From the IMG/VR virus record IMGVR_UViG_2541047680_000007: a stretch of DNA of 21,502 bases; one strand, given 5' to 3'. Within the stretch, counting starts at the first letter, position 1. Each line of letters starts with the position of its first letter. The notes below the pieces were generated by a model. That model did not search any database, was not told the origin of the DNA, and saw nothing but the letters and a program-made list of their open reading frames with translations. This document shows positions 1-21,502 of this stretch, one piece after another. The translations under genes and the position numbers were made by a program. Origin of the DNA: a virus. Its lineage: Duplodnaviria > Heunggongvirae > Uroviricota > Caudoviricetes.

Positions 1-368
1 CTGTTTCCGTTGACGAAGTTCACCGCATCCAGAAAACGGGCGTAAACCTTACGCCTGACCACCGTTCCGCCGACCAGACTCTGCAGATCTTCCGCCATCC
101 CGGTGACCATACCGTACAGGTTAGAAACCGTCAGCGTGGGGCGCGTACTGGTGCCTTTGCCATTCAGTTCAAAACCGCTCCCCTGAATGGGATACGCCTG
201 ATACTGCCGCCCCTGCCAGGTGACCGGCTCACCTTTTTCGTTCTGCTCATTACAGAAAAAATAACGTTCTCCACCGACCTCTGTCAGATCGATCTCCCAG
301 AGCACCACGCTGGCCGACTGCTCCGCACGGGTGCATTCATTCAGTGTTTCCTGCCGGATATCCTGCAT
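1..368 (-). CDS. L: Minor tail protein L, N-terminal part only (gene continues beyond the window start)
   Basis: Minus-strand frame starts at ATG 368..366, overlapping the M stop codon in an ATGA arrangement. Translation begins MQDIRQETLNECTRAEQSASVVLWEIDL..., matching remembered lambda gpL. Lies in the expected lambda gene order after M. Confidence 0.85.
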   Translation of the reverse strand, partial: MQDIRQETLNECTRAEQSASVVLWEIDLTEVGGERYFFCNEQNEKGEPVTWQGRQYQAYPIQGSGFELNGKGTSTRPTLTVSNLYGMVTGMAEDLQSLVGGTVVRRKVYARFLDAVNFVNGN

Positions 369-697
369 CAGTTCACCACCTGTTCAAACTCTGCGCTGAA
401 CTCAACACGCAGCATACTGACCCGCGACGACCATTTTGCGCAGGTCACCTTTATCTGCCGCCACTCATAAGGCGGCGTCCACAGAAAGGCCTTCCAGCCC
501 CCGTGCTCAGCCAGAAACGACTCCAGCGCCGTGGCCTCCTCACGGGAGACAGACAGCGTCACGCTGTACGTTTTCAGGTCAGCGTTCAGCCCGGCAGGCG
601 CACGCTGGGAATAGCCATCACCAAAGCGCACCTCCCTGACGGAAGGAGCCGATGTCACATCCATCCCGGGTTTCACTTTCCAGCGGAAGGTTTTCAT
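368..697 (-). CDS. M: Tail tip assembly protein M
   Basis: 109-aa ORF MKTFRWKVKPGMDV...RVEFSAEFEQVVN, near-identical to remembered lambda gpM in sequence and length. Overlaps the H stop and the L start. Confidence 0.9.
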   Translation of the reverse strand: MKTFRWKVKPGMDVTSAPSVREVRFGDGYSQRAPAGLNADLKTYSVTLSVSREEATALESFLAEHGGWKAFLWTPPYEWRQIKVTCAKWSSRVSMLRVEFSAEFEQVVN

Positions 698-3255
698 CGT
701 CCACCTCCGGAGAACAGGCCACCATCACGCATCTGTGTCTGAATTTCATCACGGGCACCCTTGCGGGCCATGTCATACACCGCCTTCATCATCTGTGGAC
801 CTGGCAGACCATTCGTACCGTCGTTCTGAATCACCACGTGATTGTTCTGATTAAAATTAATGCCTTCAGCCCGCCGCATCTGCGCCGGACTTCCGGCACC
901 GCCCACATAACCACCTTCCGCATAGCCCCGCATTAGGCGGTACAGGTTGCCGACACCAATCCGGCTGGTTGCCTCCTTCGTGAAGACAAACTCACCACGG
1001 TGAACAATCCCCGCTGGCTCATATTTGCCGCCGGTTCCCGTAAATCCTCCGGTTGCAAAATGGAATTTCGCCGCAGCGGCCTGAATGGCTGTACCGCCTG
1101 ACGCGGATGCGCCGCCACCAACAGCCCCGCCAATGGCGCTGCCGATACTCCCGACAATCCCCACCATTGCCTGCTTAAGCAGAATTTCTGTCATCATGGA
1201 CAGCACGGAACGGGTGAAGCTTCGCCAGTTCTGCTCACTGCCGGTCAGCATCGCCGCCATATTATGCGCAATACCATCAAAGGTCTGCGTGGCAGCACTT
1301 TTAACCTGCGACATACTGTCCGTGGCGCTCTCTTCCCACTCACTCCAGCCGGACTTCAGGCCTGCCATCCAGCTCCCGCGAAGCTGGTCTTCAGCCGCCC
1401 AGGTCTTTTTCTGCTCTGACATGACGTTATTCAGCGCCAGCGGATTATCGCCATACTGTTCCTTCAGACGCTGTTCCGTAGCTTCCCACGCTGCCTGCCG
1501 CTCAGTCAGCCCCCGGCTTTTCGCATCAATGGCGGCCCGTTTTGCCCGTTGCTGCTGTGCGAATTTATCCGCCTGCTGTACCAGTTCGTTCAGCCGTTTC
1601 TGGTGTTCAATCTTATCGCCAAGTTCAGCCAGCTGGCGTTTGTACTCCAGCGTCTCATCTTTATGCGCCAGCAGGGATTTCTCCTGTGCAGACAGCTGGC
1701 GACGTTGCGCCGCCTCCTCCAGTACCGCGAACTGACTCTCCGCCTTCCACAAATCCCGGCGCTGCTGGCTGATTTTCTCATTTGCTCCGGCATGCTTCTC
1801 CAGCGTCCGGAGTTCTGCCTGAAGCGTCAGCAGGGCAGCATGAGCACTGTCTTCCTGACGATCGCCCGCAGACACCTTCACGCCGGACTGTTTCGGCTTT
1901 TTCAGCGTCGCTTCATAATCCTTTTTCGCTGCCGCCATCAGCGTGTTGTAATCCGCCTGCAGGATTTTCCCGTCTTTCAGTGCCTTGTTCAGTTCTTCCT
2001 GACGGACGGTATATTTCTCCAGCGGCGTCTGCAGCCGTTCGTAAGCCTTCTGCGCCTCTTCGGTATATTTCAGCCGTGACGCTTCGGTATCGCTCTGCTG
2101 CTGCGCATTTTTGTCCTGTTGAGTCTGCTGCTCAGTCTTCTTTCGGGCGGCTTCAAGCGCAAGACGGGCCTTTTCACGATCATCCCAGTAACGCGCCCGC
2201 GCTTCATCGTTAACAAAATAATCATCCTTGCGCAGATTCCAGATGTCGTCTGCTTTCTTAAACGCAGCCTCTGCCTTAATCAGCATCTCCTGCGCGGTAT
2301 CAGGACGACCAATATCCAGCACCGCATCCCACATGGATTTGAATGCCCGCGCAGTCCTGTCTGCCCAGGTCTCCAGCGTGCCCATGTTCTCTTTCAGGCG
2401 GCGGGTCTGGTCATCAAACCCTTTCGTTGCGGCCTCGTTCGCCGCCTGCAATGCCCCGGCTTCATCGCCGGAACGCTGCAACTGAGCAACATACGCAATC
2501 TGCTCCGCCGTCACGTTATGGAACTGGCGCGCCATCGCCGTCAGCCCCGACGTCGGGTCAGTGGTCAGCTTCCCGAAGGCTTCAGCGACCTTGTCCACCT
2601 CCACACCGGATGCAGAGGAGAAACGCGCCACACTCTGGCTGATGGACGCAATCTGAGCCTCACCGCTTACCCCCGCCTTAACCAGTGCACTGAGTGACTC
2701 GCTGGTCTGGTTAAACGTCAGCCCTGCCGCCTGCCCGGCTCTGGACAGGACCAGCATACGATCTGCCGTCAGACCCGACTGATTACCGGAAAGGACCAGC
2801 GTTTTGTTGAAATCGGACAGGGTTGAGTTACCCTGATACCAGGCATACGCCAGCGCACCGGTCGCCACCGCCAGCGAGGTGGCCCCGACCATCGGCAGGG
2901 TGATCGCACCGGCAAGCCCCCGGAACATGGGGATCATCCCGCCGAAGGAGTCCTTAACCTGACCACCCTGTTGCAGCAGGATCAGCCACGGGCTTTGCCC
3001 GCCTGCAAGCTGCGTGGCCACGTCGGTGAACTGTGCAGGCAGCATACGCATGGCGGCTTTATACTGCCCGACGGAAATCCCCGCTTTCTGTGCAGCCAGC
3101 GCCTGTCGGCTCAGCGACTGTTCAACGACTGCCGCTGTTTTTTTCGCATCAGTTTCCGTACCGGAAAAATGACGCCTGACTCTGGCCATCTGCTCGTCAA
3201 ATCTGGCCGCATCCAGACTCAAATCAACGACCAGATCGCCTACCGGTTCAGCCAT
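694..3255 (-). CDS. H: Tail tape measure protein
   Basis: 853-aa ORF, the same length as lambda gpH. Long coiled-coil Q/A/E/K-rich centre and glycine-rich C-terminal region; N-terminus MAEPVGDLVVDLSLDAARFDEQ matches remembered lambda H. Confidence 0.93.
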   Translation of the reverse strand: MAEPVGDLVVDLSLDAARFDEQMARVRRHFSGTETDAKKTAAVVEQSLSRQALAAQKAGISVGQYKAAMRMLPAQFTDVATQLAGGQSPWLILLQQGGQVKDSFGGMIPMFRGLAGAITLPMVGATSLAVATGALAYAWYQGNSTLSDFNKTLVLSGNQSGLTADRMLVLSRAGQAAGLTFNQTSESLSALVKAGVSGEAQIASISQSVARFSSASGVEVDKVAEAFGKLTTDPTSGLTAMARQFHNVTAEQIAYVAQLQRSGDEAGALQAANEAATKGFDDQTRRLKENMGTLETWADRTARAFKSMWDAVLDIGRPDTAQEMLIKAEAAFKKADDIWNLRKDDYFVNDEARARYWDDREKARLALEAARKKTEQQTQQDKNAQQQSDTEASRLKYTEEAQKAYERLQTPLEKYTVRQEELNKALKDGKILQADYNTLMAAAKKDYEATLKKPKQSGVKVSAGDRQEDSAHAALLTLQAELRTLEKHAGANEKISQQRRDLWKAESQFAVLEEAAQRRQLSAQEKSLLAHKDETLEYKRQLAELGDKIEHQKRLNELVQQADKFAQQQRAKRAAIDAKSRGLTERQAAWEATEQRLKEQYGDNPLALNNVMSEQKKTWAAEDQLRGSWMAGLKSGWSEWEESATDSMSQVKSAATQTFDGIAHNMAAMLTGSEQNWRSFTRSVLSMMTEILLKQAMVGIVGSIGSAIGGAVGGGASASGGTAIQAAAAKFHFATGGFTGTGGKYEPAGIVHRGEFVFTKEATSRIGVGNLYRLMRGYAEGGYVGGAGSPAQMRRAEGINFNQNNHVVIQNDGTNGLPGPQMMKAVYDMARKGARDEIQTQMRDGGLFSGGGR

Positions 3256-4086
3256 ACCGGACTCCTCCTGCGATCCCTTCTGATACTGTCATCAGCATTA
3301 CGTCATCCTCCGTCATGTCCGCCACATCCGGGGAAACGGGGATAACTTCATTCCCGTCCGGGCCAAAACGAACGCCTCCGGCAAGCCCTGCCGCTTTCTG
3401 CATCAGCACATCATCTTCAGGCTCTTCGTCAGCCTCGCGCCGGTTCAGCAGACTGAAATCCAGCGGATGCATATCCGGATCGCTGAAAAACAGGCTGAGT
3501 ACGGTGTACGTCAGCCCGGAAAAGTGCATATCCAGCAGAACATCATGAAAATAATGGGTACTGTAAAAGCGGTGCCAGTCGGCATACTCCGTGGATGACA
3601 TCCCGGCAAGCATGGCGCGCCAGTCGGGTCGCCCCATCTCACGCGCCAGTTTCAGGGCAAAACTCAGCTCACCGTCGAACACTTTCCCGCAGAAACAGGC
3701 TCTGCAGGCCCGGCGTCATCTGCCTGTTCAGGGGCATTATTCACCACAAACTCAGACATTCCGGACAGACGTAACACCACGTTTTCAGCCTGAGCAATTG
3801 CCTCCGTGGGCCAGGTGGTAAGCACTTCCTGCTCAATCTGTTTAACGGCTTCATTCATGGAAGGCTGCTTTGTCTTCTGCGGATGGTTATGCCACAGGGA
3901 CATCGCCACCACAAAAGCACCGGTTCTGATGGCGTCTTCCACAGTAACCTGCCGGTTGCTGTCTGACTCCGCCTGTTCTGCCTGCTGTTTCATCAGGGCG
4001 AGATGCTCAATACGCTGCAGGGCTGACAGTTCAGAAAGCGTGACGGTCACGCCGTTATGTTCAAATGATTCGGTTTTCAGGAACAT
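3248..4086 (-). CDS. T: Tail assembly protein G-T fusion, made by programmed -1 ribosomal frameshift from G into the T frame
   Basis: The T frame (3248..3682, MFDGELSFALKLAREMG...) has no independent start context and overlaps the G 3' end. Minus-strand sequence ...CTGCGGGAAAGTGTTCGAC... contains the canonical slippery heptamer G GGA AAG exactly where the -1 frame continues as VFDGELSF. Confidence 0.8.
3664..4086 (-). CDS. G: Tail assembly chaperone G
   Basis: 140-aa ORF ending ...SAGKCSTVS, located between V and the T frame. A slippery heptamer lies near its 3' end. Confidence 0.88.
   Translation of the reverse strand: MFLKTESFEHNGVTVTLSELSALQRIEHLALMKQQAEQAESDSNRQVTVEDAIRTGAFVVAMSLWHNHPQKTKQPSMNEAVKQIEQEVLTTWPTEAIAQAENVVLRLSGMSEFVVNNAPEQADDAGPAEPVSAGKCSTVS
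3682..3688 (-). other. Slippery heptamer GGGAAAG (programmed -1 frameshift site for G-T)
   Basis: Plus strand 3682..3688 is CTTTCCC, i.e. GGGAAAG on the coding strand, in the G/T overlap. Confidence 0.75.
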
Positions 4087-4101
4087 CGCTGACTCTCCGG
4101 A

Positions 4102-4872
4102 TTAACTGGCGGTGACGGTGATTTCTGCAACCGCAGCAAGTTCACCATTACCGGATACAACCGGAATGTTGACCTTGCCTGCAGCAACGCCGTTCACGGT
4201 GATGGTCATACCACTGACCGACACGGTGGCTTTTGTTTTATCCGCAGACACCGCACGGAAGCTCTTGTCAGTTGCGCCCTCCGGCTGGAAGGCCACGGTC
4301 AGCGTGGTGCTCTGCCCTTTCACCACCGAGGAGCTGGCAGGCGTCACGGTCATACCGGTTGCCGCCGTCACCGTACTGCGATCTTCTGCCATTGACGGAC
4401 GGCCCACATTGGTGACCTTCACCGTACGGGTGATCACTTCCTTCGCCGTCACCGCCTTACCGATACTGCTGACCCAGCCACGGAACACATCGACCGTGCC
4501 GTTCGGAAAGCGGATTTTATAGGCACGGGTATCACCTTCATTAAACCACGCCAGCAGCGCCTGCTGCCCCTGCTCTCCGGGCATCCACGCCAGCGTGAAG
4601 CTGGTATCTCCGGCTGACTTCTGCCCCTGTCCGGTCGCGGTCCAGTCCGCATCTTCATCATCGAGATAACTGTCGTCATAGGACTCAGCGGTCAGTTCGC
4701 CGGGCGTCAGGTCTTTAACTTTAGCCAGACGCGACCAGTCAACGTCTGAAAGCGGGTTCGCATAAGGGTCACCGTTCCCCTTATAAACCCACAGAGTGGT
4801 TCCGGCACCTTTCACCGGCATTGTTGGATTTGGTACAGGCATAGCGTCCTCACATTTCATAGGTAATGACAT
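4102..4872 (-). CDS. V: Major tail tube protein V (with C-terminal Ig-like extension)
   Basis: 256-aa ORF in the lambda V position between U and G. C-terminal part ...[70 protein letters not shown]... has an Ig-like (Big_2-type) pattern. Confidence 0.88.
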
Positions 4873-5245
4873 AAGTCAGATCGGCTGAACTCCACAGGCC
4901 CGCATCATCGTCGCGCCGGTAGTCATAGCCACTGGCCACCATACTGGTGATCAAATCTGACAGTGCCGGGATATCGCTCATCACCGGATAAATCCGGGAC
5001 TCCATCCACGAATCCAGCTCTGAATCCGGCACCTGAGCAGGCAGGAAAACTTCAATATGCAGCTCCGCCTGCCAGGTATCGCTGTCCAGCTCTTCGCCCG
5101 TGTATTCAGCGCCAGTGAGATAAACGGCAATTGCCGGAAAATCTTCCTCATCAAAAACAGCGGGGCGACCATCAAAAAGCGTCGCCCCGGTGTCATGCTT
5201 CTCCAGTGCATCCAGTACGGCTGCACGGAGTTCAGTATGTTTCAT
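4850..5245 (-). CDS. U: Tail terminator protein U
   Basis: 131-aa [70 protein letters not shown]..., near-identical to remembered lambda gpU and the same length. Confidence 0.9.
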
Positions 5246-5820
5246 CGCTTTATTACCATTCTCAGTTGATGCTGCAGCGCATAGTCCAGCTCTTTCGGAA
5301 GACGTTCACGCCGTATCCGCTCAATATTCTGTTTAAACGCCGTGGTCAGCGGCACCGCCATCGGGATTTTCACCACATCAATGGGGTAACGGTTTTTCCC
5401 GGCCACACGCTGCATGACATGCCACCGGCCATTTTTCAGTTGCTGAATAAACGCGCCGGGAATACGACGGTTTCCCGCCACAAGCACGCTGCCGCCACCT
5501 TTCAGGGATGAACGCTGCCCCTTTTTACGACGCCTGCGTCGGGACAGGACAACCCGCGCGTTACCCAGCTTGATTACGGGCAAATCCCCCCGGTTAACTT
5601 TGATTCTGGCCTGCGGATTTTTGACCGTGGCCCTTTTCAGCCTGGCCCTTTCCTTTACCAGTTTCCGGCGTACCTTTGTCTCACGGGCAACCTGTGACGC
5701 AGACTGCGATATCGCGGATGACGCAACGCGGTTAATGGCCATTGCGGCGGCACCAGGCACTGCCGTTTTGCTGATACGGCTGAGGTTTTCAACGGCCTGC
5801 TCAAGACCTTTTATGGCCAT
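5242..5820 (-). CDS. Z: Tail completion protein Z
   Basis: Track ORF 5242..5886 trimmed to the internal ATG at 5820..5818 (MAIKGLEQAVENLSRISK...), giving 192 aa like lambda gpZ. The 22 codons upstream overlap FII and are probably not translated. Confidence 0.85.
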   Translation of the reverse strand: MAIKGLEQAVENLSRISKTAVPGAAAMAINRVASSAISQSASQVARETKVRRKLVKERARLKRATVKNPQARIKVNRGDLPVIKLGNARVVLSRRRRRKKGQRSSLKGGGSVLVAGNRRIPGAFIQQLKNGRWHVMQRVAGKNRYPIDVVKIPMAVPLTTAFKQNIERIRRERLPKELDYALQHQLRMVIKR

Positions 5821-5831
5821 ACATCCCCCTT

Positions 5832-6185
5832 TCAGCGGCGACGGCTGGCGGCAGGTGGTTGCCCCCGGTTGAGCCAGAGATAACAACTCCCTCCGTCATC
5901 CGGAGAAACACGGTCCACCCAGAACATCTCGCCGTTAATGGTCAGCGTGTCACCACGCCGTACAGCACAAACCGTATCCGTAAGCACAAATAATGACGGG
6001 TTACTTCCTTCAATACGGATCCCACTACTGGCAAAACCCAGCGACTCCGGATCGTCAAAAACGCCATGAACCTCGCCGCCACGCTGTGCACCGGAGGTGA
6101 ACTGCGCACTGATGCCCATCACTTCAACAATCGTACTGTCCACCCCGGCAAGGGCGGCATCAAAGGCATTCTGAAAATCACGCAT
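5832..6185 (-). CDS. FII: Head-tail joining protein FII
   Basis: Trimmed to ATG 6185..6183 (MRDFQNAFDAAL...), 117 aa as in lambda FII. C-terminal motif FWVDRVSPDDGGSC...RRR is shared with lambda FII while the N-terminal part diverges. Confidence 0.8.
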   Translation of the reverse strand: MRDFQNAFDAALAGVDSTIVEVMGISAQFTSGAQRGGEVHGVFDDPESLGFASSGIRIEGSNPSLFVLTDTVCAVRRGDTLTINGEMFWVDRVSPDDGGSCYLWLNRGQPPAASRRR

Positions 6186-6552
6186 AAACAGCCATTCCAC
6201 CATCAACGTGTGTTTTTGCATCTGAGGACATAATCAGAATCACCCGACCAACATCCGCAAGCTCAACGGATTCCCCCGTTTCACCATCAACGCCACAGAG
6301 ATGGAGGCAGGTCAGAACTCTGATGCGCGTTAACGCGCCGGATGTTTCCTCACGAACATCATGAGCCGCGGTTTCCCGCTCCCGGATATCCATATTCATA
6401 ACCTGTACATCATCGCCGGATGACTGCATTTCCTCTTCCCATTCTGCCACCCGCTGCGCTATCTCTGCGGCACTCCCGGATATATCCGGCTCACGCCCCA
6501 GAATCAGGGCCAGTTCATCAAGCCGTTTCAGATTTTGCTCTTTCGTTGCCAT
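6178..6552 (-). CDS. FI: DNA packaging accessory protein FI-like
   Basis: Positional homolog between E and FII. Start chosen at ATG 6552..6550 (MATKEQNLKRLDELALIL...), preceded by the Shine-Dalgarno-like AGGGGGC; acidic central region as in lambda FI. Sequence similarity to lambda FI is weak, so the call is mainly by position. Confidence 0.65.
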   Translation of the reverse strand: MATKEQNLKRLDELALILGREPDISGSAAEIAQRVAEWEEEMQSSGDDVQVMNMDIRERETAAHDVREETSGALTRIRVLTCLHLCGVDGETGESVELADVGRVILIMSSDAKTHVDGGMAVYA

Positions 6553-6603
6553 ATCAGCCCCCTGTGAAAAAAGACACGGGGGCATTTCGCCCCCGCTCAC
6601 GGA

Positions 6604-7632
6604 TTATTTCACCTGTACCACCACAAACTCATCCGGGTCCGGCAACACCATCAGCGGCGCGGACTGCGTCATGGTAAATTCACGGGCGGGATCCCCTACC
6701 GTCAGCCAGTGTTTCGGATAACGGGAAGAGGCCACCACACCTTCGGACAACGCCTGAGCATCCTGAATGGCACCGTAACAACGGATCCCATCTGCAGCAG
6801 TATTCCCCAGAACCAGCATGCCATCTGGAAGATAACGTTTTTCGATACCGTCTTCTGCTATATAAGACGTTTTCGCCACCACAATGGCCAGATCGCCGTA
6901 ATACCCCTTGAAGGACACCACTGCGCCCAGATCTTTCACTGCCGTTTCGAGTTGAGAATTTGAACCGCGACGGGTATCCAGTTTTTCGCGGAACAGCTTA
7001 AAACCATTCAGAAGACGCCAGACGGTACCGTCCATAATGGCAATATTCACAAGACCGCTGGCCAGGTCGCAGTAGAGGTCAATATCATGTGTAGGATCGA
7101 ACGTGTCACGATCCTGTTTTGACCACTCCTTACCACTACCCTGAGTGATGTTATTCTTCGTCGACCTGCCAAAATCGACCTCAATTTTCTCGAACTGGTC
7201 TCCTTCCATGGTGTATTTGCCATACAACACAGCATTTACCGCCTGCATTTCTTCCACCTGGACAATCGCGTGCTCTTCCTGTTTGAGGTTATCGGTAATG
7301 ATACGCAGACGGCGGTAAGCCGGATCATTCAGTTGAGATGGATCTTCACCAGGAAGGCGCTCAACCGCCTGCTGGTAATTAAATTCGTGTTTCGGCTTGA
7401 CGTAGCCCGGACGCAACACGCGGGTTTCACCACCACGATGACGCAGCACTTTTCCTTCAACAACCGGGGAGACATAGGCCGCCACCGGCGTTTTTCCGGT
7501 AATTTTGTCCAGCATCACCTCTTCGGTATGGAAATTCACCGTACGGCGGAAAAACAGCTCCAGAAACAGCGCACGAAATTTAACTTTTTGTTCGGTATAA
7601 CCGAGTAACTGGCGGGTCGTAAACAATCCCAT
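6604..7632 (-). CDS. E: Major capsid protein
   Basis: 342-aa ORF (lambda gpE is 341 aa). Conserved blocks RGG, PGYVKPKHE, DPAYRR, VEEMQAV, GKYTM, NNITQ, EWSK, LDTRRGSNS, LETAVKDLG, TGDPAREFTM, QSAPLM, ADPDEFV match remembered lambda gpE, roughly 55-60% identity by eye. Confidence 0.92.
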   Translation of the reverse strand: MGLFTTRQLLGYTEQKVKFRALFLELFFRRTVNFHTEEVMLDKITGKTPVAAYVSPVVEGKVLRHRGGETRVLRPGYVKPKHEFNYQQAVERLPGEDPSQLNDPAYRRLRIITDNLKQEEHAIVQVEEMQAVNAVLYGKYTMEGDQFEKIEVDFGRSTKNNITQGSGKEWSKQDRDTFDPTHDIDLYCDLASGLVNIAIMDGTVWRLLNGFKLFREKLDTRRGSNSQLETAVKDLGAVVSFKGYYGDLAIVVAKTSYIAEDGIEKRYLPDGMLVLGNTAADGIRCYGAIQDAQALSEGVVASSRYPKHWLTVGDPAREFTMTQSAPLMVLPDPDEFVVVQVK

Positions 7633-7656
7633 AAATCAGTTCCTTTCATTCAGAAA

Positions 7657-7674
7657 TCAGTCAGGCCACCGCGG
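7657..7674. repeat. Perfect 18-bp palindrome AGGCCACCGCGGTGGCCT in the D-E intergenic region (potential RNA hairpin)
   Basis: Read directly from the sequence; self-complementary across its full length. Sits between the D stop (7690) and the E start (7632). Confidence 0.6.
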
Positions 7675-7689
7675 TGGCCTGATAACGTG

Positions 7690-8037
7690 TTACGGCAGCG
7701 CCGCGTGACTCAGGGCACTGCCAGCAAAGGCGTTGGCCTTTTTGTGTTCATCCACACTTTCAGGCCAGTGGATTGCCTCCGTCGCAAAGGTTCCCGACTT
7801 GTAATACGTCAGCGCCGTCTCTGTGCCTTCAAGCGGCAGTACCAGTATGCCAACCGCACTACCGGCTTTCTGTCCGTCCCAGACCACCAGTTTCCCGGTG
7901 GCTTCATCCAGCATCAGGGGCGTCAGTGCCGGTGTTGGCGAGGAAATCCCGCTGCTGCCTGTGGCGGTATGAGCCGGATCATTACCGGCAAAAATACGTA
8001 CTTCCGCACGCTGTTCAGTGATGGTTTTCGTCACCAT
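7690..8037 (-). CDS. D: Capsid decoration protein D
   Basis: 115-aa ORF with motifs DPAHTAT, TPLMLD, KLV.WDG, AVGIL, YKSGTF, WPE, AFAG matching remembered lambda gpD, in the lambda D position. Confidence 0.85.
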   Translation of the reverse strand: MVTKTITEQRAEVRIFAGNDPAHTATGSSGISSPTPALTPLMLDEATGKLVVWDGQKAGSAVGILVLPLEGTETALTYYKSGTFATEAIHWPESVDEHKKANAFAGSALSHAALP

Positions 8038-8073
8038 ATTGTAAAAACCTCCTATTGATGGTCAGCACTGACT

Positions 8074-8676
8074 TCATGGCATGGCCATGAGCATTTTCAC
8101 GTCCGCATCACCGTCTGCTGACGTCTGTGCCACGCCACCCTGTACCGCTGCCGGTGAATGGTTCGCCATGAAATGTTCAAACATGGCGGTTGTGGATGCA
8201 GAGACCGGTTCTGCCTTACCTGATCCCGCAGCCAGCACAGCCCGGGCGCTCTCCACTGTCATTCCCGGGCAGGCAGCCAGCTGTTCAGCCTGCGCCTCAG
8301 CCCCTTTTGCCTCATCCAGTGCCATGATCTGATCACGGAGTGATGGTCCGGCATCCGCCTGCGGTGAAGCAGCCAGGATCGGGCGGGCTTTTTCCACCGT
8401 CATCTCCGGCATCGCCGCCAGCGTTGCCGCCAGTTGTTCACGACCGTTCGCTTCTTCACACACCATAATGCGATCGGCTTCACTCTGCGTGGATGCCACC
8501 GGCTGCTGCGGTGCCGCCGCGGCCAGAATCGCCCGGGCCTGTTCAACGCTCATGCCCTGTTGTCCTGCCAGCATCGTGGCAAGCTGTTCACGTCCTTTCG
8601 CTTCCTGGCATGTCAGGATCCCCATCACTCGCTGGTTCTCCTGCGCGGCGGCTTCCGTTGCAGTTAATTGCGGCAT
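8074..8676 (-). CDS. Nu3: Scaffolding protein Nu3-like, in-frame nested gene within the 3' part of C
   Basis: Internal ATG at 8676..8674 is preceded by a strong Shine-Dalgarno GAGGAGG at 5-nt spacing (minus strand AGAGGAGGCACTATGCCGCAA...). This gives a 200-aa in-frame product, about the size of lambda Nu3, which is likewise nested in C. Confidence 0.65.
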   Translation of the reverse strand: MPQLTATEAAAQENQRVMGILTCQEAKGREQLATMLAGQQGMSVEQARAILAAAAPQQPVASTQSEADRIMVCEEANGREQLAATLAAMPEMTVEKARPILAASPQADAGPSLRDQIMALDEAKGAEAQAEQLAACPGMTVESARAVLAAGSGKAEPVSASTTAMFEHFMANHSPAAVQGGVAQTSADGDADVKMLMAMP

Positions 8677-17781: not shown

Positions 17782-18261
17782 TTTTATTCCTACGGGTCTT
17801 ATTCTGACAATATATCCTGTGTTCCAGACTGCCACATCACCACATCCTGTGCCATTATCTGACTCACATTACATACATCGCATCGGGATACAGTAGTAGC
17901 ACTTTCTGTAATACAGCTTCCTGTTTCTTCCACCATCGCACCGGGATAAACCCGCGAATCATTAACGCGGTAAAAACCCGGTGTGCATCGTTTTTAATTA
18001 TTCCCGCACACTCACGCAGAAGGAATTCCCCGTCGGGCTACGGTCATGGTTAATGCGGGAATACGGCGACGATACAGCGCAGCTAAAAGGGTAATGGACG
18101 GATAGACCGGTTTATTTCATTCCACAGGATTCTGAGTGTCCCCAACTTCCTCCAATAGTCTGAGCCCACCTGTGTAGTTTTAATTTTCATCAATCCATTT
18201 AACTATCGTTTAATTGTTGTCACATAGGATTCTGCCGTTTTTAACAATGCAGGATAATAAG

Positions 18262-18555
18262 ATGAAAAAAATGTTGTTTTCTGCCGCTCTGGCAATGCTT
18301 ATTACAGGATGTGCTCAACAGACGTTTACTGTTGGAAACAAACCTACAGCAGTAACACCAAAGGAAACCATCACCCATCATTTCTTCGTTTCGGGAATTG
18401 GGCAGAAGAAAACTGTCGATGCAGCAAAAATTTGTGGTGGTGCAGAAAATGTTGTTAAAACAGAAACCCAGCAAACATTCGTAAATGGATTGCTCGGTTT
18501 TATTACTTTAGGCATTTATACTCCGCTGGAAGCGCGTGTGTATTGCTCACAATAA
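18262..18555 (+). CDS. bor: Bor outer-membrane lipoprotein (serum-resistance moron)
   Basis: 97-aa product from ATG 18262 (MKKMLFSAALAMLITGC AQQTFTV...), near-identical to remembered lambda Bor, with lipobox LITGC. Oriented opposite to the late operon, as in lambda. Confidence 0.9.
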   Translation: MKKMLFSAALAMLITGCAQQTFTVGNKPTAVTPKETITHHFFVSGIGQKKTVDAAKICGGAENVVKTETQQTFVNGLLGFITLGIYTPLEARVYCSQ

Positions 18556-18586
18556 TTGCATGAGTTGCCCATCGATATGGGCAGCT

Positions 18587-19048
18587 CTATCTGCACTGCT
18601 CATTAATATACTTCTGGGTTCCTTCCAGTTGTTTTTGCATAGTGATCAGCCTCTCTCTGAGGGTGAAATAATCCCGTTCAGCGGTGTCTGCCAGTCGGGG
18701 GGAGGCTGCATTATCCACGCCGGAGGCGGTGGTGGCTTCACGCACTGACTGACAGACTGCTTTGATGTGCAACCGACGACGACCAGCGGCAACATCATCA
18801 CGCAGAGCATCATTTTCAGCTTTCGCATCAGCTAACTCCTTCGTGTATTTTGCATCGAGCGCAGCAACATCACGCTGACGCATCTGTATGTCAGTAATTA
18901 CCGCGTTCGCCAGCGTCAGTTCTCTGGCATTTTTGTCGCGCTGGGCTTTGTAGGTAATGGCGTTATCACGGTAATGATTAACAGCCCATGACAGGCAGAC
19001 GATGATGCAGATAACCAGAGCGGAGATAATCGCGGTTACTCTGTTCAT
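18587..19048 (-). CDS. Rz: Inner-membrane spanin Rz
   Basis: Trimmed to ATG 19048 ([44 protein letters not shown]...), 153 aa, near-identical to remembered lambda Rz. Start overlaps the R stop (ATGA). Confidence 0.92.
18646..18828 (-). CDS. Rz1: Outer-membrane lipoprotein spanin Rz1, embedded in the +1 frame of Rz
   Basis: 60-aa [63 protein letters not shown] with lipobox and proline-rich body, near-identical to remembered lambda Rz1; wholly inside Rz. Confidence 0.9.
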
Positions 19049-19542
19049 TGCTGACCCCACAAACAGATTTCACGCTCAATCTCACGACGAGTCATGAGAC
19101 CTTTCCATTGCTTACCGCCAGCATATGTCCAGCGACGTAGCTGATCACATGCGCCTTTGATATCGCCCTGGTTTATTTTGCGAAGAAGCGTCGATGTTCT
19201 GAAATTGCCAGCACCCACGTTGTAAACGAATGAGTAAAGAGCGCCGCGCATTGTTTCCGGTATATCGACTTTGATGTACGGGTTAATTTGTCTGGCGACC
19301 GTGGCAAGGTCTTTATTCAGGAGGGCTTTGCATTCTGCTTTGGTATACGTTTTACCGAGCATGATGTCTTTTCCTGTATGCCCGTGACATACAGTCCATA
19401 CACCAACAATATCTTTGTATGGTATGTAGCTGACACCTTCCAGACCATCGTTACCACTTGGGCCAGTGATTAACACTGATGCTATAGCAATTGCTCCGCC
19501 ACCAATAGCAGCAGCAACGGCTTTTCGTAATGATGGAGGCAT
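19045..19542 (-). CDS. R: SAR (signal-arrest-release) endolysin, phage-21 R-type lysozyme
   Basis: 165-aa ORF. N-terminal [27 protein letters not shown] is a weakly hydrophobic Gly/Ala-rich SAR domain, followed by a T4-lysozyme-like catalytic region (E...D...T). Matches remembered phage 21 R. Confidence 0.9.
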
Positions 19543-19757
19543 TATTCACCTCTCGCAGCCTTGCGCTTATCTTCTTTAATCTTGAAATAAAGGTTTGTCA
19601 GGTACGTCAGCAGGCCAAATACCAGGCTACCCAGCACACCTATTGCCGCCCACTGTGAGGGCGTGACTTTATCGAGCAACTGTAAAAACCAGTACCCGGC
19701 ACTACCTGCTGAGGTACCATAGGCGACACCCGTTGTTAACTTATCCATGGATTTCAT
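19542..19757 (-). CDS. S: Pinholin (S21-type holin) with dual-start motif (Met1 antiholin / Met4 holin)
   Basis: 71-aa [74 protein letters not shown] with two transmembrane segments and a charged C-terminus. ATG codons at positions 1 and 4; Shine-Dalgarno GAGGTGGGG upstream. Confidence 0.9.
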
Positions 19758-19883
19758 AACCCCACCTCGCAGACAAAGCGGGTGTAAATTAAGGGGATAC
19801 TACGTATCGCAATAAAGGCAGAAACGTAACAGATTCGGAGTCAGTGAATAACTCAGGTATTGGGTTATCAGCTAATATCGAGA

Positions 19884-19919
19884 CTCAAAAAATGGAAAAA
19901 CCCGCTCGACGGCGGGTTT
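19884..19919 (-). terminator. Intrinsic terminator-like hairpin with U-tract on the minus strand, upstream of S (candidate tR'-type late-leader terminator)
   Basis: Plus 19898..19919 AAACCCGC-TCGACG-GCGGGTTT forms an 8-bp stem with 6-nt loop. On the minus strand it is followed by UUUUUCCAUUUUUU (reverse complement of 19884..19897). Confidence 0.5.
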
Positions 19920-20345
19920 AAGCTGTGTGACGAAGTAACCACTCTTAACAGCATAACCAATTTTTTACGTACGTAAACTACTAAATGATATTTGTGAGAA
20001 TGCCACCGAGTGTTCAAAACACCACCACAAATGCATAAGAAAACTTCAACAAATAACCAGTTAATAATTTCCGATGTTATTTTTAGTTTGTTTAAATTAA
20101 GCTAAAGAATTATAGAGCACTTATAAATAAGTGCCATTAATATAAATTAGCTAATAGATTTATTTTTGTTCAGACAAGAGCCATGAATAGGATTAGATAG
20201 AAAAGGTTCAGATAAAAATAGAGATCTACTTCACAAATTAAATGAGAAACTAAAACTTACATCTTGAAATAATCACATTGATTAGATGAATATTTATCGC
20301 GCAGTGACATCATTTTTTAATAATAGTTCAAAAAAAGGGCGTACA

Positions 20346-21317
20346 ATGAAAAAATTAACAGTGGCAATTTCTGCTGTAGCTGCATCAGTACTGATGGCGA
20401 TGTCTGCTCAGGCAGCTGAAATTTATAATAAAGACAGTAACAAGCTGGATCTATACGGGAAAGTTAATGCCAAGCACTACTTCTCCTCTAATGATGCAGA
20501 TGATGGTGATACTACTTATGCCCGTCTTGGCTTCAAAGGTGAAACCCAAATCAACGATCAACTGACTGGTTTCGGTCAGTGGGAATATGAATTCAAAGGC
20601 AACCGTGCTGAATCTCAAGGTTCTTCCAAAGACAAAACCCGTCTTGCATTTGCAGGCCTGAAATTTGGTGATTACGGCTCAATCGATTACGGCCGTAACT
20701 ACGGTGTAGCATACGACATCGGTGCGTGGACTGACGTTCTGCCAGAATTCGGTGGTGATACCTGGACCCAAACAGATGTGTTCATGACTGGTCGCACTAC
20801 TGGTGTTGCAACTTATCGTAACAACGACTTCTTTGGTCTGGTCGATGGCCTGAACTTTGCTGCTCAGTATCAGGGTAAAAATGACCGCACTGACGTAACT
20901 GAAGCCAATGGTGATGGTTTCGGTTTCTCCACTACTTATGAGTATGAAGGATTCGGCGTGGGTGCAACCTATGCTAAATCAGATCGCACTGACGGTCAGG
21001 TCGCCTATGGTAAGAGCAAATTCAATGCCTCCGGCAAAAATGCGGAAGTATGGGCTGCAGGCCTGAAATATGATGCGAACAATATCTATCTGGCTACCAC
21101 ATATTCTGAAACTCAGAATATGACCGTTTTTGGTAATAACCATATTGCAAACAAAGCACAAAACTTTGAAGCAGTAGCACAATATCAGTTTGACTTCGGT
21201 CTGCGTCCATCTGTTGCTTACCTTCAGTCAAAAGGTAAAGACCTTGGTGTTCATGGTGACCGAGACTTAGTCCTGAGAGATCCCCTCATAATTTCCCCAA
21301 AGCGTAACCATGTGTGA
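20346..21317 (+). pseudogene. nmpC: NmpC/Lc/OmpD-type general porin gene (prophage moron), 3'-truncated by IS10 insertion
   Basis: From ATG 20346: signal peptide [23 protein letters not shown], then the classical porin start [16 protein letters not shown] and porin blocks ([79 protein letters not shown]). After ...GDRDLV (about 21272) the frame enters IS10 and ends [14 protein letters not shown], lacking the roughly 40 C-terminal residues and terminal Phe of OmpC-family porins. Confidence 0.85.
21264..21272. repeat. Candidate 9-bp IS10 target site (GACTTAGTC) abutting the IS10 inside end
   Basis: The symmetric 9-mer GACT-T-AGTC immediately precedes the IS10 terminus and resembles the IS10 target consensus NGCTNAGCN. 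The second copy would lie beyond the window and cannot be checked. Confidence 0.45.
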
Positions 21318-21502
21318 ATAAATTTTGAGCTAGTAGGGTTGCAGCCACGAGTAAGTCTTCCCTTGTTATTGTGTAGCCAGAATGCCGCAAAACTTCCATG
21401 CCTAAGCGAACTGTTGAGAGTACGTTTCGATTTCTGACTGTGTTAGCCTGGAAGTGCTTGTCCCAACCTTGTTTCTGAGCATGAACGCCCGCAAGCCAAC
21501 AT
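21273..21502 (-). mobile_element. IS10 (IS4 family), inside-end 230 bp; the element continues beyond the window end
   Basis: Sequence from 21273 (CTGAGAGATCCCCTCATAATTTCCCCAAAGCGTAACCATGTGTGAATAAATTTTGAGC...) matches the remembered IS10 inside end. The minus strand encodes the transposase C-terminus up to a stop inside the terminal repeat. Confidence 0.85.
21286..21501 (-). CDS. IS10 transposase, C-terminal fragment (5' part outside the window)
   Basis: Minus-strand frame reads ...[70 protein letters not shown], with the stop at 21288..21286 inside the IS10 inside end. Confidence 0.8.

Follow-up and report, generated by a model that had tools for sequence, protein, structure and literature searches.

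Recent ISCro1 and IS10 insertions in the late region of a phage-21-like Escherichia coli prophage: probable early neutral decay

The window analysed here (the whole stretch of DNA, 21,502 bp) is identified from its genes as the late-gene half, carried on the minus strand, of a phage-21-like lambdoid prophage of Escherichia coli. ISCro1 splits its gene A for the terminase large subunit behind codon 69, so that the greater part of the ATPase domain lies past the insertion, and a full-length large subunit cannot be encoded from this copy of A. An ompC-like porin moron is truncated by IS10. We consider it likely that neutral prophage decay has taken its first step here, within a single clonal lineage, and that the state is not a selected, domesticated one. 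Two mobile elements abundant in such genomes would have landed very recently and independently, A receiving ISCro1 and the porin gene receiving IS10 at its 3' end. IS-driven prophage decay of this kind is ordinary.

Gene content of the late region

The window runs from an incomplete L to Nu1, followed by cos, the moron block, the S21-R-Rz/Rz1 lysis cassette and the ompC-like porin gene. The order Nu1-A-W-B-C-D-E-FI-FII-Z-U-V-G/T-H-M-L is collinear, as judged from the list of ORFs, the alignment to annotated genes of UTI89 and PhiR63_2, and Pfam matches for Nu1 and gpA. The lambda-type cos, the gene order and the phage-21-type lysis cassette place the window in a lambdoid late region. The features outside the two insertion sites are as follows (percentages are relative to the UTI89 counterpart).

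1-368, minus: minor tail protein L, first 122 codons of 232, the rest beyond the window edge; 98.1%, no stops
368-697, minus: tail gene M; ORF open, UTI89 length
694-3255, minus: tail gene H; ORF open, UTI89 length
3248-3682, minus: tail gene T; ORF open, UTI89 length
3664-4086, minus: tail gene G with GGGAAAG slip site; ORF open, UTI89 length
4102-4842, minus: tail gene V; ORF open, UTI89 length
4850-5245, minus: tail gene U; ORF open, UTI89 length
5242-5820, minus: tail gene Z; ORF open, UTI89 length
5832-6185, minus: head gene FII; 100%
6178-6552, minus: head gene FI; 100%
6604-7632, minus: head gene E; 100%
7690-8037, minus: head gene D; 100%
8074-9579, minus: head gene C/Nu3; 100%
9569-11161, minus: portal gene B; identical save two synonymous changes
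11158-11364, minus: head gene W; 100%
15955-16503, minus: terminase small subunit Nu1, 182 aa, intact; Pfam Phage_Nu1 (E = 1.9e-81), 100%
16504-16691, minus: cos region, with cosN GGGCGGCGACCT at 16680-16691 (exact match to the lambda cohesive end) and cosB between cosN and Nu1
17455-17781, minus: TonB_C-domain lipoprotein moron, 108 aa, N-terminus MKRRLLLLFLLSVLAVGC; Pfam TonB_C (E = 7e-13), 100%
18262-18555, plus: iss/bor lipoprotein moron, 97 aa; Pfam Lambda_Bor (E = 1e-30), identical to RefSeq Iss WP_001298464.1
18587-19757, minus: whole lysis cassette (Rz/Rz1, R, S)
18587-19048, minus: Rz; Pfam Phage_lysis, 100%
18646-18828, minus: Rz1, embedded in Rz; Pfam Rz1, 100%
19045-19542, minus: endolysin R; Pfam Phage_lysozyme, 100%
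19542-19757, minus: phage-21-type holin S; Pfam Phage_holin_2_1 "P21 holin S" (E = 2e-35), 100%

The 12-nt cohesive end lies upstream of Nu1, and the genome record of phage 21 starts exactly at window position 16691. The assignment of Bor/Iss follows from its Lambda_Bor domain and from the lipoprotein's length of about 97 aa. For the small ORFs that lie between cos and the TonB_C gene, neither PHROGs nor Pfam gave a function. The sequence-only reading had described the head, tail and lysis ORFs other than A as full-length, and this holds, for L up to the window edge: apart from A and the porin gene, the ORFs contain no internal stops and equal their UTI89 counterparts in length. The set checked comprised L (N-terminal 122 codons), M, H, T, G, V, U, Z, FII, FI, E, D, C, B, W, Nu1, S, R, Rz, Rz1, iss and the TonB_C lipoprotein gene. 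Open frames and disruptions alike are deterministic features of the sequence and involve no statistics.

In the relatives UTI89, BEN2908 and strain 729 the prophage is flanked by an icd fragment and int/xis; the same region lies beyond the window here. The relatives' prophage is sited at icd, with iss/bor, the TonB_C lipoprotein gene, the ompC-like porin gene and sitABCD as its cargo. This prophage type is widespread and mostly intact in complete E. coli genomes, including those of uropathogenic (UTI89, NU14) and avian pathogenic (APEC) isolates. Phage 21 itself shares the cos end, Nu1-A, and the head and tail modules with the window (98.8% identity over positions 1-16691). Two deposited phage genomes, PhiR63_2 (PV340574) and PhiR57_1 (PV340572), are 99.1% identical to it. 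The PhiR63_2 match covers about 86% of the window, that is, all but ISCro1, and ends at 21272, leaving the IS10 tail unmatched; the shared part includes the S21-type holin gene, R, Rz, bor/iss, the TonB_C gene and the porin gene. PhiR63_2 also has sitABCD and the icd-type integrase end, as in the UTI89 prophage. We found no paper on PhiR63_2 or PhiR57_1, and the status of PhiR63_2 as an active phage rests on its GenBank record. Compared with these three phages, the window copy adds ISCro1 in A, IS10 in the porin gene and a tail segment diverged by about 2.7%.

The two insertions

The features at the insertion sites are as follows.

11348-13077, minus: A, C-terminal part (nt 200-1929, including the 8-bp duplication); 100% vs UTI89 A
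13078-15776, minus: ISCro1 (IS66 family), 2,699 bp; named after the near-identical L003 element in RefSeq, with one mismatch across the IS
13108-14679, minus: ISCro1 tnpC, 523 aa, intact ORF
14699-15046, minus: ISCro1 tnpB, 115 aa, intact ORF
15046-15723, minus: ISCro1 tnpA, 225 aa, intact ORF
15777-15983, minus: A, N-terminal codons 1-69; 100% vs UTI89 A nt 1-207
20346-21272, plus: ompC-like porin moron, codons 1-309 of 360; 100% vs the intact allele, Pfam Porin_1 positions 1-287 of 337
21273-21502, no strand assigned: IS10/ISVsa5 (IS4 family), terminal 230 bp, starting CTGAGAGATCCCCTCATAATTTCCCC; the remainder lies beyond the window

With the uninterrupted UTI89 prophage as the reference, the alignment breaks at window positions 13077/15777 with an 8-bp overlap. 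This overlap is the target duplication AATCAGAT, present as direct copies at 13070-13077 and 15777-15784. The terminal inverted repeats are imperfect and start with GTAA (GTAAGCGACTCG... and GTAACCGGCTCA...). Three ORFs in the order tnpA-tnpB-tnpC, the length of about 2.7 kb, the GTAA termini and the 8-bp duplication identify an IS66-family element. In the largest ORF of the C-terminal fragment of A, Pfam GpA_ATPase is matched only from profile position 44 of 247, together with GpA_nuclease. The disruption of A by an IS, as claimed from the sequence alone, is therefore borne out.

So is the truncation of the porin moron. Its C-terminal 51 residues are gone, and the frame runs 14 codons into IS10 to a stop at 21315-21317. 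The sequence from 21273 to the window end matches the end of copies of "IS4-like element ISVsa5" (IS10) in 1,835 genomes, with an identity of 97-99.6% to annotated copies. The window stops before the transposase ORF, the opposite end of the element and the 9-bp duplication. The 9 bp preceding the junction, GACTTAGTC, resemble the target consensus of IS10, NGCTNAGCN. The junction carries what looks like the inside end of IS10, and a solo element is therefore expected.

That the assembler misplaced IS elements in a prophage that is really intact is scarcely credible: IS elements are classic sites of misassembly and the window stops 230 bp into IS10, as a contig end might, but a perfect 8-bp duplication surrounds a complete 2,699-bp ISCro1, the identical A::ISCro1 junction occurs in five independently sequenced complete genomes, and the IS10 junction falls at the exact IS10 terminus beside a 9-mer close to the target consensus.

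Age of the insertions and state of the relatives

From 5832 to 21272 the window differs from the uninterrupted UTI89 prophage by only two synonymous changes and one single-base T-run indel. The UTI89/NU14-type icd prophage with chromosomal iss has the gene order and morons of the window and is identical from FII to porin codon 309; unlike the window copy, it has uninterrupted A and porin genes. The indel, at 16601 in cosB, was considered as an additional lesion and rejected, given that the window state is common to the deposited phage PhiR63_2 and strain 729, UTI89 being the outlier. The two halves of A are identical to the intact UTI89 allele in all 1,929 of 1,929 nt. Both insertions are evidently very recent and independent. 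This dating rests on identity to the sister allele, and divergence could in principle have been erased through gene conversion by a further prophage copy.

The A::ISCro1 junction was found in 5 of 5,426 complete genomes, all five being poultry isolates; isolates bearing the allele come from several countries. The porin::IS10 junction occurred in none of the 5,426 and is seen in the window copy alone. At least 80% of the UTI89 late region is carried by 381 genomes, and 52 of the 60 best matches to this region are uninterrupted; in those of the remainder that were sampled, the IS elements occupy cosB or non-coding stretches of the moron block. The defective state is thus not conserved across a substantial clade. 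The persistence of the A::ISCro1 allele in these isolates shows that it is tolerated at the least, and would be compatible with a benefit as well.

The tail segment (approximately 1-5900) is about 2.7% diverged from every complete genome, with the best match in the collection at 97.6%; the best match to the window as a whole among complete E. coli genomes is about 99%. Decay after inactivation was rejected as the cause of this divergence, since the ORFs are open, indels are compensated in frame, and codon changes relative to UTI89 are more often synonymous (84) than non-synonymous (56). The segment is best read as a recombinational mosaic.

Explanations and consequences of the defective state

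A different account of the A lesion is that the cosB-Nu1-5'A region of lambdoid prophages is struck repeatedly, owing to a target preference of ISCro1 or to parallel selection against packaging. We hold this to be unlikely. Packaging and head genes of lambdoid prophages yielded eight independent ISCro1 insertions, each with a different target duplication. Those in A lie at approximately nt 118 (23CRST047), 207 (the window type), 229 (BEN2908), 732 (TUM9757) and 906 (602354); those outside A are in Nu1 (MFDS1016424), cosB (DE17, and probably VTB96815v, site not located) and C (AUSMDU00014361). However, the search covered A with 1 kb on either side and linked pieces only when they lay on the same strand, so that ascertainment is biased; the target duplications have no obvious common motif; elsewhere ISCro1, present at about eight places per genome in the relatives, adjoins capsid, tail-fibre-assembly and HK97-gp10 genes; and, set against the lambdoid prophages of the collection, which number in the thousands, these events are very few. 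A tight hotspot within A (three of the five insertions within 111 bp, rough scan probability about 0.1) is not claimed, as the wider search spread the insertions over A, Nu1 and C and the design is biased. That ISCro1 recurrently and independently disables the packaging initiation module (cosB, Nu1, 5' A) in unrelated E. coli lineages, through a structural hotspot near cos or through convergent selection, is in our view very improbable; if true, convergent selection for lysing, non-exporting prophages would be a first, reproducible step to host capture of a lysis module.

The sequence-only reading had proposed domestication. On such an account the host would have been selected to stop making particles and to retain the lysis cassette together with the morons (iss, TonB_C and porin), which would provide serum resistance, exclusion, or lysis-mediated release of vesicles or toxins. 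This is quite improbable. It could draw on the combination of a dead A with intact S, R, Rz/Rz1, iss and TonB_C genes, on the persistence of the A::ISCro1 allele in a poultry-associated lineage, and on the role of iss as an established serum-survival factor (PMC8148099, in a passage citing Johnson 2008). It could also draw on strain 729 (L003), where the prophage with the same A lesion shows frameshifts of 2 nt in both K and I as well as a bet-exo deletion of 1,047 bp; every one of these affects phage function and the lysis and moron genes are spared, although the numbers are too small to carry meaning. Decay continues in that lineage.

The dating of the insertions deprives the retained genes of their weight. 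Post-inactivation substitutions number zero in the retained genes and zero in both dead halves of A, so that no signal of selection is measurable. Intact neighbours are uninformative on selection because the insertions are too recent and the dead gene is equally undiverged; neither domestication nor retention for host benefit follows from them. The claim that the lysis cassette and morons are retained stands for S-R-Rz/Rz1, iss/bor and the TonB_C gene and fails for the porin gene, one of the three morons, which is itself the second IS victim. Nor does this second hit speak for relaxed selection on phage function, as had been suggested, since IS10 sits in a moron.

The close relative BEN2908, which has its own independent A::ISCro1 insertion, also carries IS1 in the lysozyme gene R. 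Of the roughly 10 lesions in coding or cis sequences seen in the prophage family, porin::IS10 in the window and R::IS1 in BEN2908 account for about 2, the target share of lysis and moron genes being about 13%; these genes are not visibly protected. The same morons occur, identical, in intact phage-producing versions (deposited phage genomes; PMC6969025), and bor/iss and sitABCD are no sign of domestication because they are normal cargo of active lambda-like coliphages (PMC6969025). Among incomplete prophages, surveys find genes for release and lysis to be lost by preference rather than kept (PMC7744054). Finally, an A-null, lysis-competent prophage still kills the induced cell, the opposite of the first gain expected from host-level selection.

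Genes of the relatives bear DLP12 names in RefSeq (quuD, essD, rrrD, rzpD). DLP12, a cryptic prophage of E. coli K-12, appears to share the arrangement of Q, an opposite-strand porin gene and an S21-type lysis cassette (quuD - nmpC::IS5 - essD rrrD rzpD), with its porin gene nmpC also IS-interrupted near the 3' end. DLP12 decayed long ago to a remnant in which no head or tail genes are left, and host phenotypes of its lysis genes have been investigated. In contrast, the window has the whole late operon, essentially undiverged, and IS10 rather than IS5.

Because the break in gpA precedes the greater part of its ATPase domain, packaging should be lost in cis; to this extent the earlier conclusion that packaging is knocked out is supported. 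Terminase-null A-amber mutants of lambda make proheads and tails and lyse the cell, with neither cos cleavage nor packaged DNA. We expect the same phenotype here, with the difference that the lesion is an IS insertion instead of a point mutation and may also be polar on W to L. The A and porin lesions are read from the late region; Q, immunity, replication, int/xis, K-I-J, sitABCD and the rest of the genome lie beyond the window. By analogy with lambda, excision, replication and late expression could still follow induction if Q-modified polymerase reads through IS10 and ISCro1, although expression of the lysis cassette is not guaranteed because IS10 sits between the late promoter region and S. 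The induced prophage would then build proheads and tails and lyse the cell, and cos DNA would be neither cut nor packaged. From the split gpA, infective particles with this genome are not expected unless a co-resident 21-type terminase complements; the terminase of another prophage or excision of the IS may rescue their production.

The prophage type, with its iss and sit genes, is common, but the present copy can probably not package its own DNA. Spread of these virulence-associated genes by lysogenic conversion from this element is therefore unlikely in the lineage. The case has little importance beyond annotation, apart from a general caution: intact genes beside an IS-disrupted gene point to domestication only if enough time has passed since the disruption for genes not under selection to decay. 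As a separate observation, the repeated insertions of ISCro1 in lambdoid terminase genes possibly deserve a systematic census.

Gene map and identity of the element

The map was based on alignment to annotated relatives and on Pfam scans. In the list of window ORFs, all long ORFs follow the order of the lambda late operon on the minus strand.

Features of the window (coordinates, strand where assigned, feature)
1–368, minus, L, first 122 codons
368–697, minus, M
694–3255, minus, H
3248–3682, minus, T
3664–4086, minus, G
4102–4842, minus, V
4850–5245, minus, U
5242–5820, minus, Z
5832–6185, minus, FII
6178–6552, minus, FI
6604–7632, minus, E
7690–8037, minus, D
8074–9579, minus, C
9569–11161, minus, B (portal)
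11158–11364, minus, W
11348–13077, minus, A, distal part
13078–15776, insert in A
15777–15983, minus, A, codons 1–69
15955–16503, minus, Nu1
16680–16691, cosN, GGGCGGCGACCT
16771–17332, region of conflicting annotations
17455–17781, minus, TonB_C-domain lipoprotein
18262–18555, plus, iss/bor
18587–19048, minus, Rz, with Rz1 inside
19045–19542, minus, lysozyme R
19542–19757, minus, phage-21-type holin S
from 20346, plus, ompC-like porin

Phage 21 matches window 1–16691 at 98.8% in a search of the phage collection, and the cos end is fixed by its record, which begins exactly at 16691. The deposited phage genomes PhiR63_2 and PhiR57_1 both match at 99.0–99.1% over about 86% of the window; the unmatched part is the insert in A, and their alignment stops at 21272, leaving the IS10 tail of the window without a match too. 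Complete E. coli genomes carry this element as a prophage bordered by an icd fragment and int/xis (strains UTI89, BEN2908 and 729), with sitABCD past the tail fibres, and PhiR63_2 has the same cargo.

Between cos and the TonB_C gene, a minus-strand 60-aa ORF of RefSeq (17066–17248, phrog_3744) conflicts with the PhiR63_2 annotation of the overlapping region, a 117-aa plus-strand ORF (16979–17332, phrog_4843). An unannotated plus-strand ORF of 83 aa (16840–17091), whose N-terminus resembles a signal peptide, gave no family match. The TonB_C-domain lipoprotein matches PHROG 1267, labelled 'Rz-like spanin'; this label looks wrong, given that the real Rz/Rz1 pair is encoded at 18587–19048.

Insertions in terminase A and in the porin gene

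The alignment of the window with the UTI89 prophage is interrupted at 13077/15777 with an 8-bp overlap. The 2,699-bp insert has terminal repeats GTAAGCG.../GTAACCG..., intact tnpA, tnpB and tnpC, and a perfect target duplication AATCAGAT (13070–15784 including the duplications). In strain 729 a nearly identical copy, with one mismatch over the IS, is named ISCro1, IS66 family, by RefSeq. The element parts codons 1–69 of A from the remainder. The Pfam GpA_ATPase match of the largest remaining A ORF starts only at profile position 44 of 247, and, by analogy with lambda gpA, the Walker A loop falls shortly after the insertion point but ahead of the first Met of this ORF. Full-length gpA cannot come from this copy.

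Over 309 codons the porin does not differ from the intact allele of 360 codons; it matches positions 1–287 of 337 of the Pfam Porin_1 profile and lacks the final 51 residues. The sequence past the break corresponds to the ends of ISVsa5/IS10 copies present in 1,835 genomes. At the junction the element has what looks like the 'inside' end of IS10, which would point to a solo IS10 and not to Tn10. In the relatives, Q and a strong terminator are located just past the porin stop. The IS10 (window 21273–21502; relatives, L002 33722–33911) thus stands between holin S and the Q/late-promoter-terminator region beyond the window. Besides the porin gene, it interrupts the antisense-porin leader of the late operon, which is approximately 2 kb long. 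The remaining head, tail, lysis and moron ORFs are all open and have the same lengths as in UTI89, so the sequence-only reading was correct about the disrupted A, the truncated porin and the otherwise full-length ORFs.

ISCro1 was found at eight independent sites in lambdoid packaging and head genes of unrelated E. coli strains, each with a different 8-bp duplication: window 13070–15784, BEN2908 (L001 26954–29634), and further loci L004 15427–18125, L006 12130–14828 and L008–L011. Five insertions hit A (at about nt 118, 207, 229, 732 and 906) and one each in Nu1, cosB and C. No common motif was found among the eight target duplications. Three hits in A fall within 111 bp (rough scan probability about 0.1). 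The search had A at its centre and was biased towards one orientation; the clustering may reflect a regional preference or just ascertainment bias, and is a lead rather than a result.

Divergence and distribution of lesions

Relative to uninterrupted UTI89, B carries two synonymous substitutions and the T-run of cosB (16601, between cosN and Nu1) differs by one base; these are the only differences from 5832 (FII) to 21272 (the porin break). One state of this one-base length polymorphism in the T-run is common to the window, strain 729 and PhiR63_2, the other state being found in UTI89 and BEN2908; as PhiR63_2 has the state of the window, UTI89 is the outlier. A mosaic junction is located near Z/FII. 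The tail module beyond it (1–5900, L' to Z) differs by about 2.7% from all 5,426 complete genomes, the best of which matches at 97.6%. All its ORFs are open, indels are compensated in frame, and 84 synonymous changes stand against 56 non-synonymous ones, which speaks for a recombinational mosaic derived from another functional lambdoid phage and not for decay. In G, two changes are synonymous and ten non-synonymous.

The exact A::ISCro1 junction is present in five of the 5,426 complete genomes, all poultry isolates, and the porin::IS10 junction in none of them. At least 80% of the uninterrupted UTI89 late region, used as query, was present in 381 genomes, and among the best 60 of these 381 matches the region was uninterrupted in 52. 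Intact copies are thus the norm in this prophage family, of which the window is a rare variant. The IS elements found in the rest of the best 60 sit in the moron block outside coding sequence (ISEc52 between the TonB_C gene and a small ORF; members of the IS3 family ahead of iss), with a further insertion in cosB. The IS3-family elements lie about 70–230 bp upstream of iss (L013 15692–16920 in AH21I008, likewise in ESBLEC_HM50 and OZ547099; L005 16928–18141 in APEC E12053); at least one carrier, AH21I008, is a human blood isolate. These insertions could alter iss expression; PMC8148099 summarizes iss alleles and how they relate to serum survival.

Domestication or recent inactivation

According to the sequence-only reading, the prophage appears domesticated, its lysis genes, Bor and the TonB-C-like lipoprotein possibly being kept for host benefit. 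Nothing measurable here supports this. The two halves of the dead A are identical to the live allele at 1,929 of 1,929 positions; as no time has elapsed, intact neighbours cannot count as selective retention. Nor are the allegedly retained classes visibly protected. The second IS victim in the window is one of its three morons, and in BEN2908, where an ISCro1 entered A independently (22 bp from the site in the window, duplication ATTTAATC), the lysozyme gene R contains IS1 (L001 33241–33938). Lysis and moron genes bear about 2 of about 10 coding or cis lesions seen in the family against a target share of about 13%, i.e. without depletion. The BEN2908 annotation also has an internal stop in L and a portal-gene frameshift, which may be assembly errors.

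Strain 729, carrying the same A lesion, has further lesions in phage-function genes only: 2-nt frameshifts in K and I (L003 12357–13665) and a 1,047-bp bet-exo deletion (L003 46343–46349; UTI89 L002 44643–45690). These fit ongoing decay of a dead phage, in numbers far too small to indicate sparing of lysis or moron genes. Its head genes (window-equivalent 7500–12908) represent a different allele, with a recombination breakpoint at most 169 bp from the IS.

Actively produced lambda-like coliphages from infant guts have bor and sitABCD as their commonest morons (PMC6969025). Carrying these genes is a property of the live phage. Among 1,384 surveyed prophages, genes for replication, packaging and release were all preferentially lost from incomplete ones (PMC7744054), so having the lysis cassette intact is not what usually marks a host-adapted remnant.

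Judging from lambda genetics, induction would still lead to replication, prohead and tail assembly and cell lysis, the DNA of the element being left uncut and unpackaged. ISCro1 is located upstream of W to L, and late expression would hinge on read-through of both IS10 and ISCro1 by Q-modified polymerase. A co-resident 21-type terminase could complement the loss of A. With S-R-Rz intact, knocking out the terminase does not save an induced cell and hence is not expected to bring any advantage at the cell level. The window is a recent IS inactivation of a common, otherwise active temperate phage, an event of a known kind. The simplest account is that it was fixed neutrally in a clone that has numerous copies of ISCro1; in the relatives this element occupies about eight places per genome.
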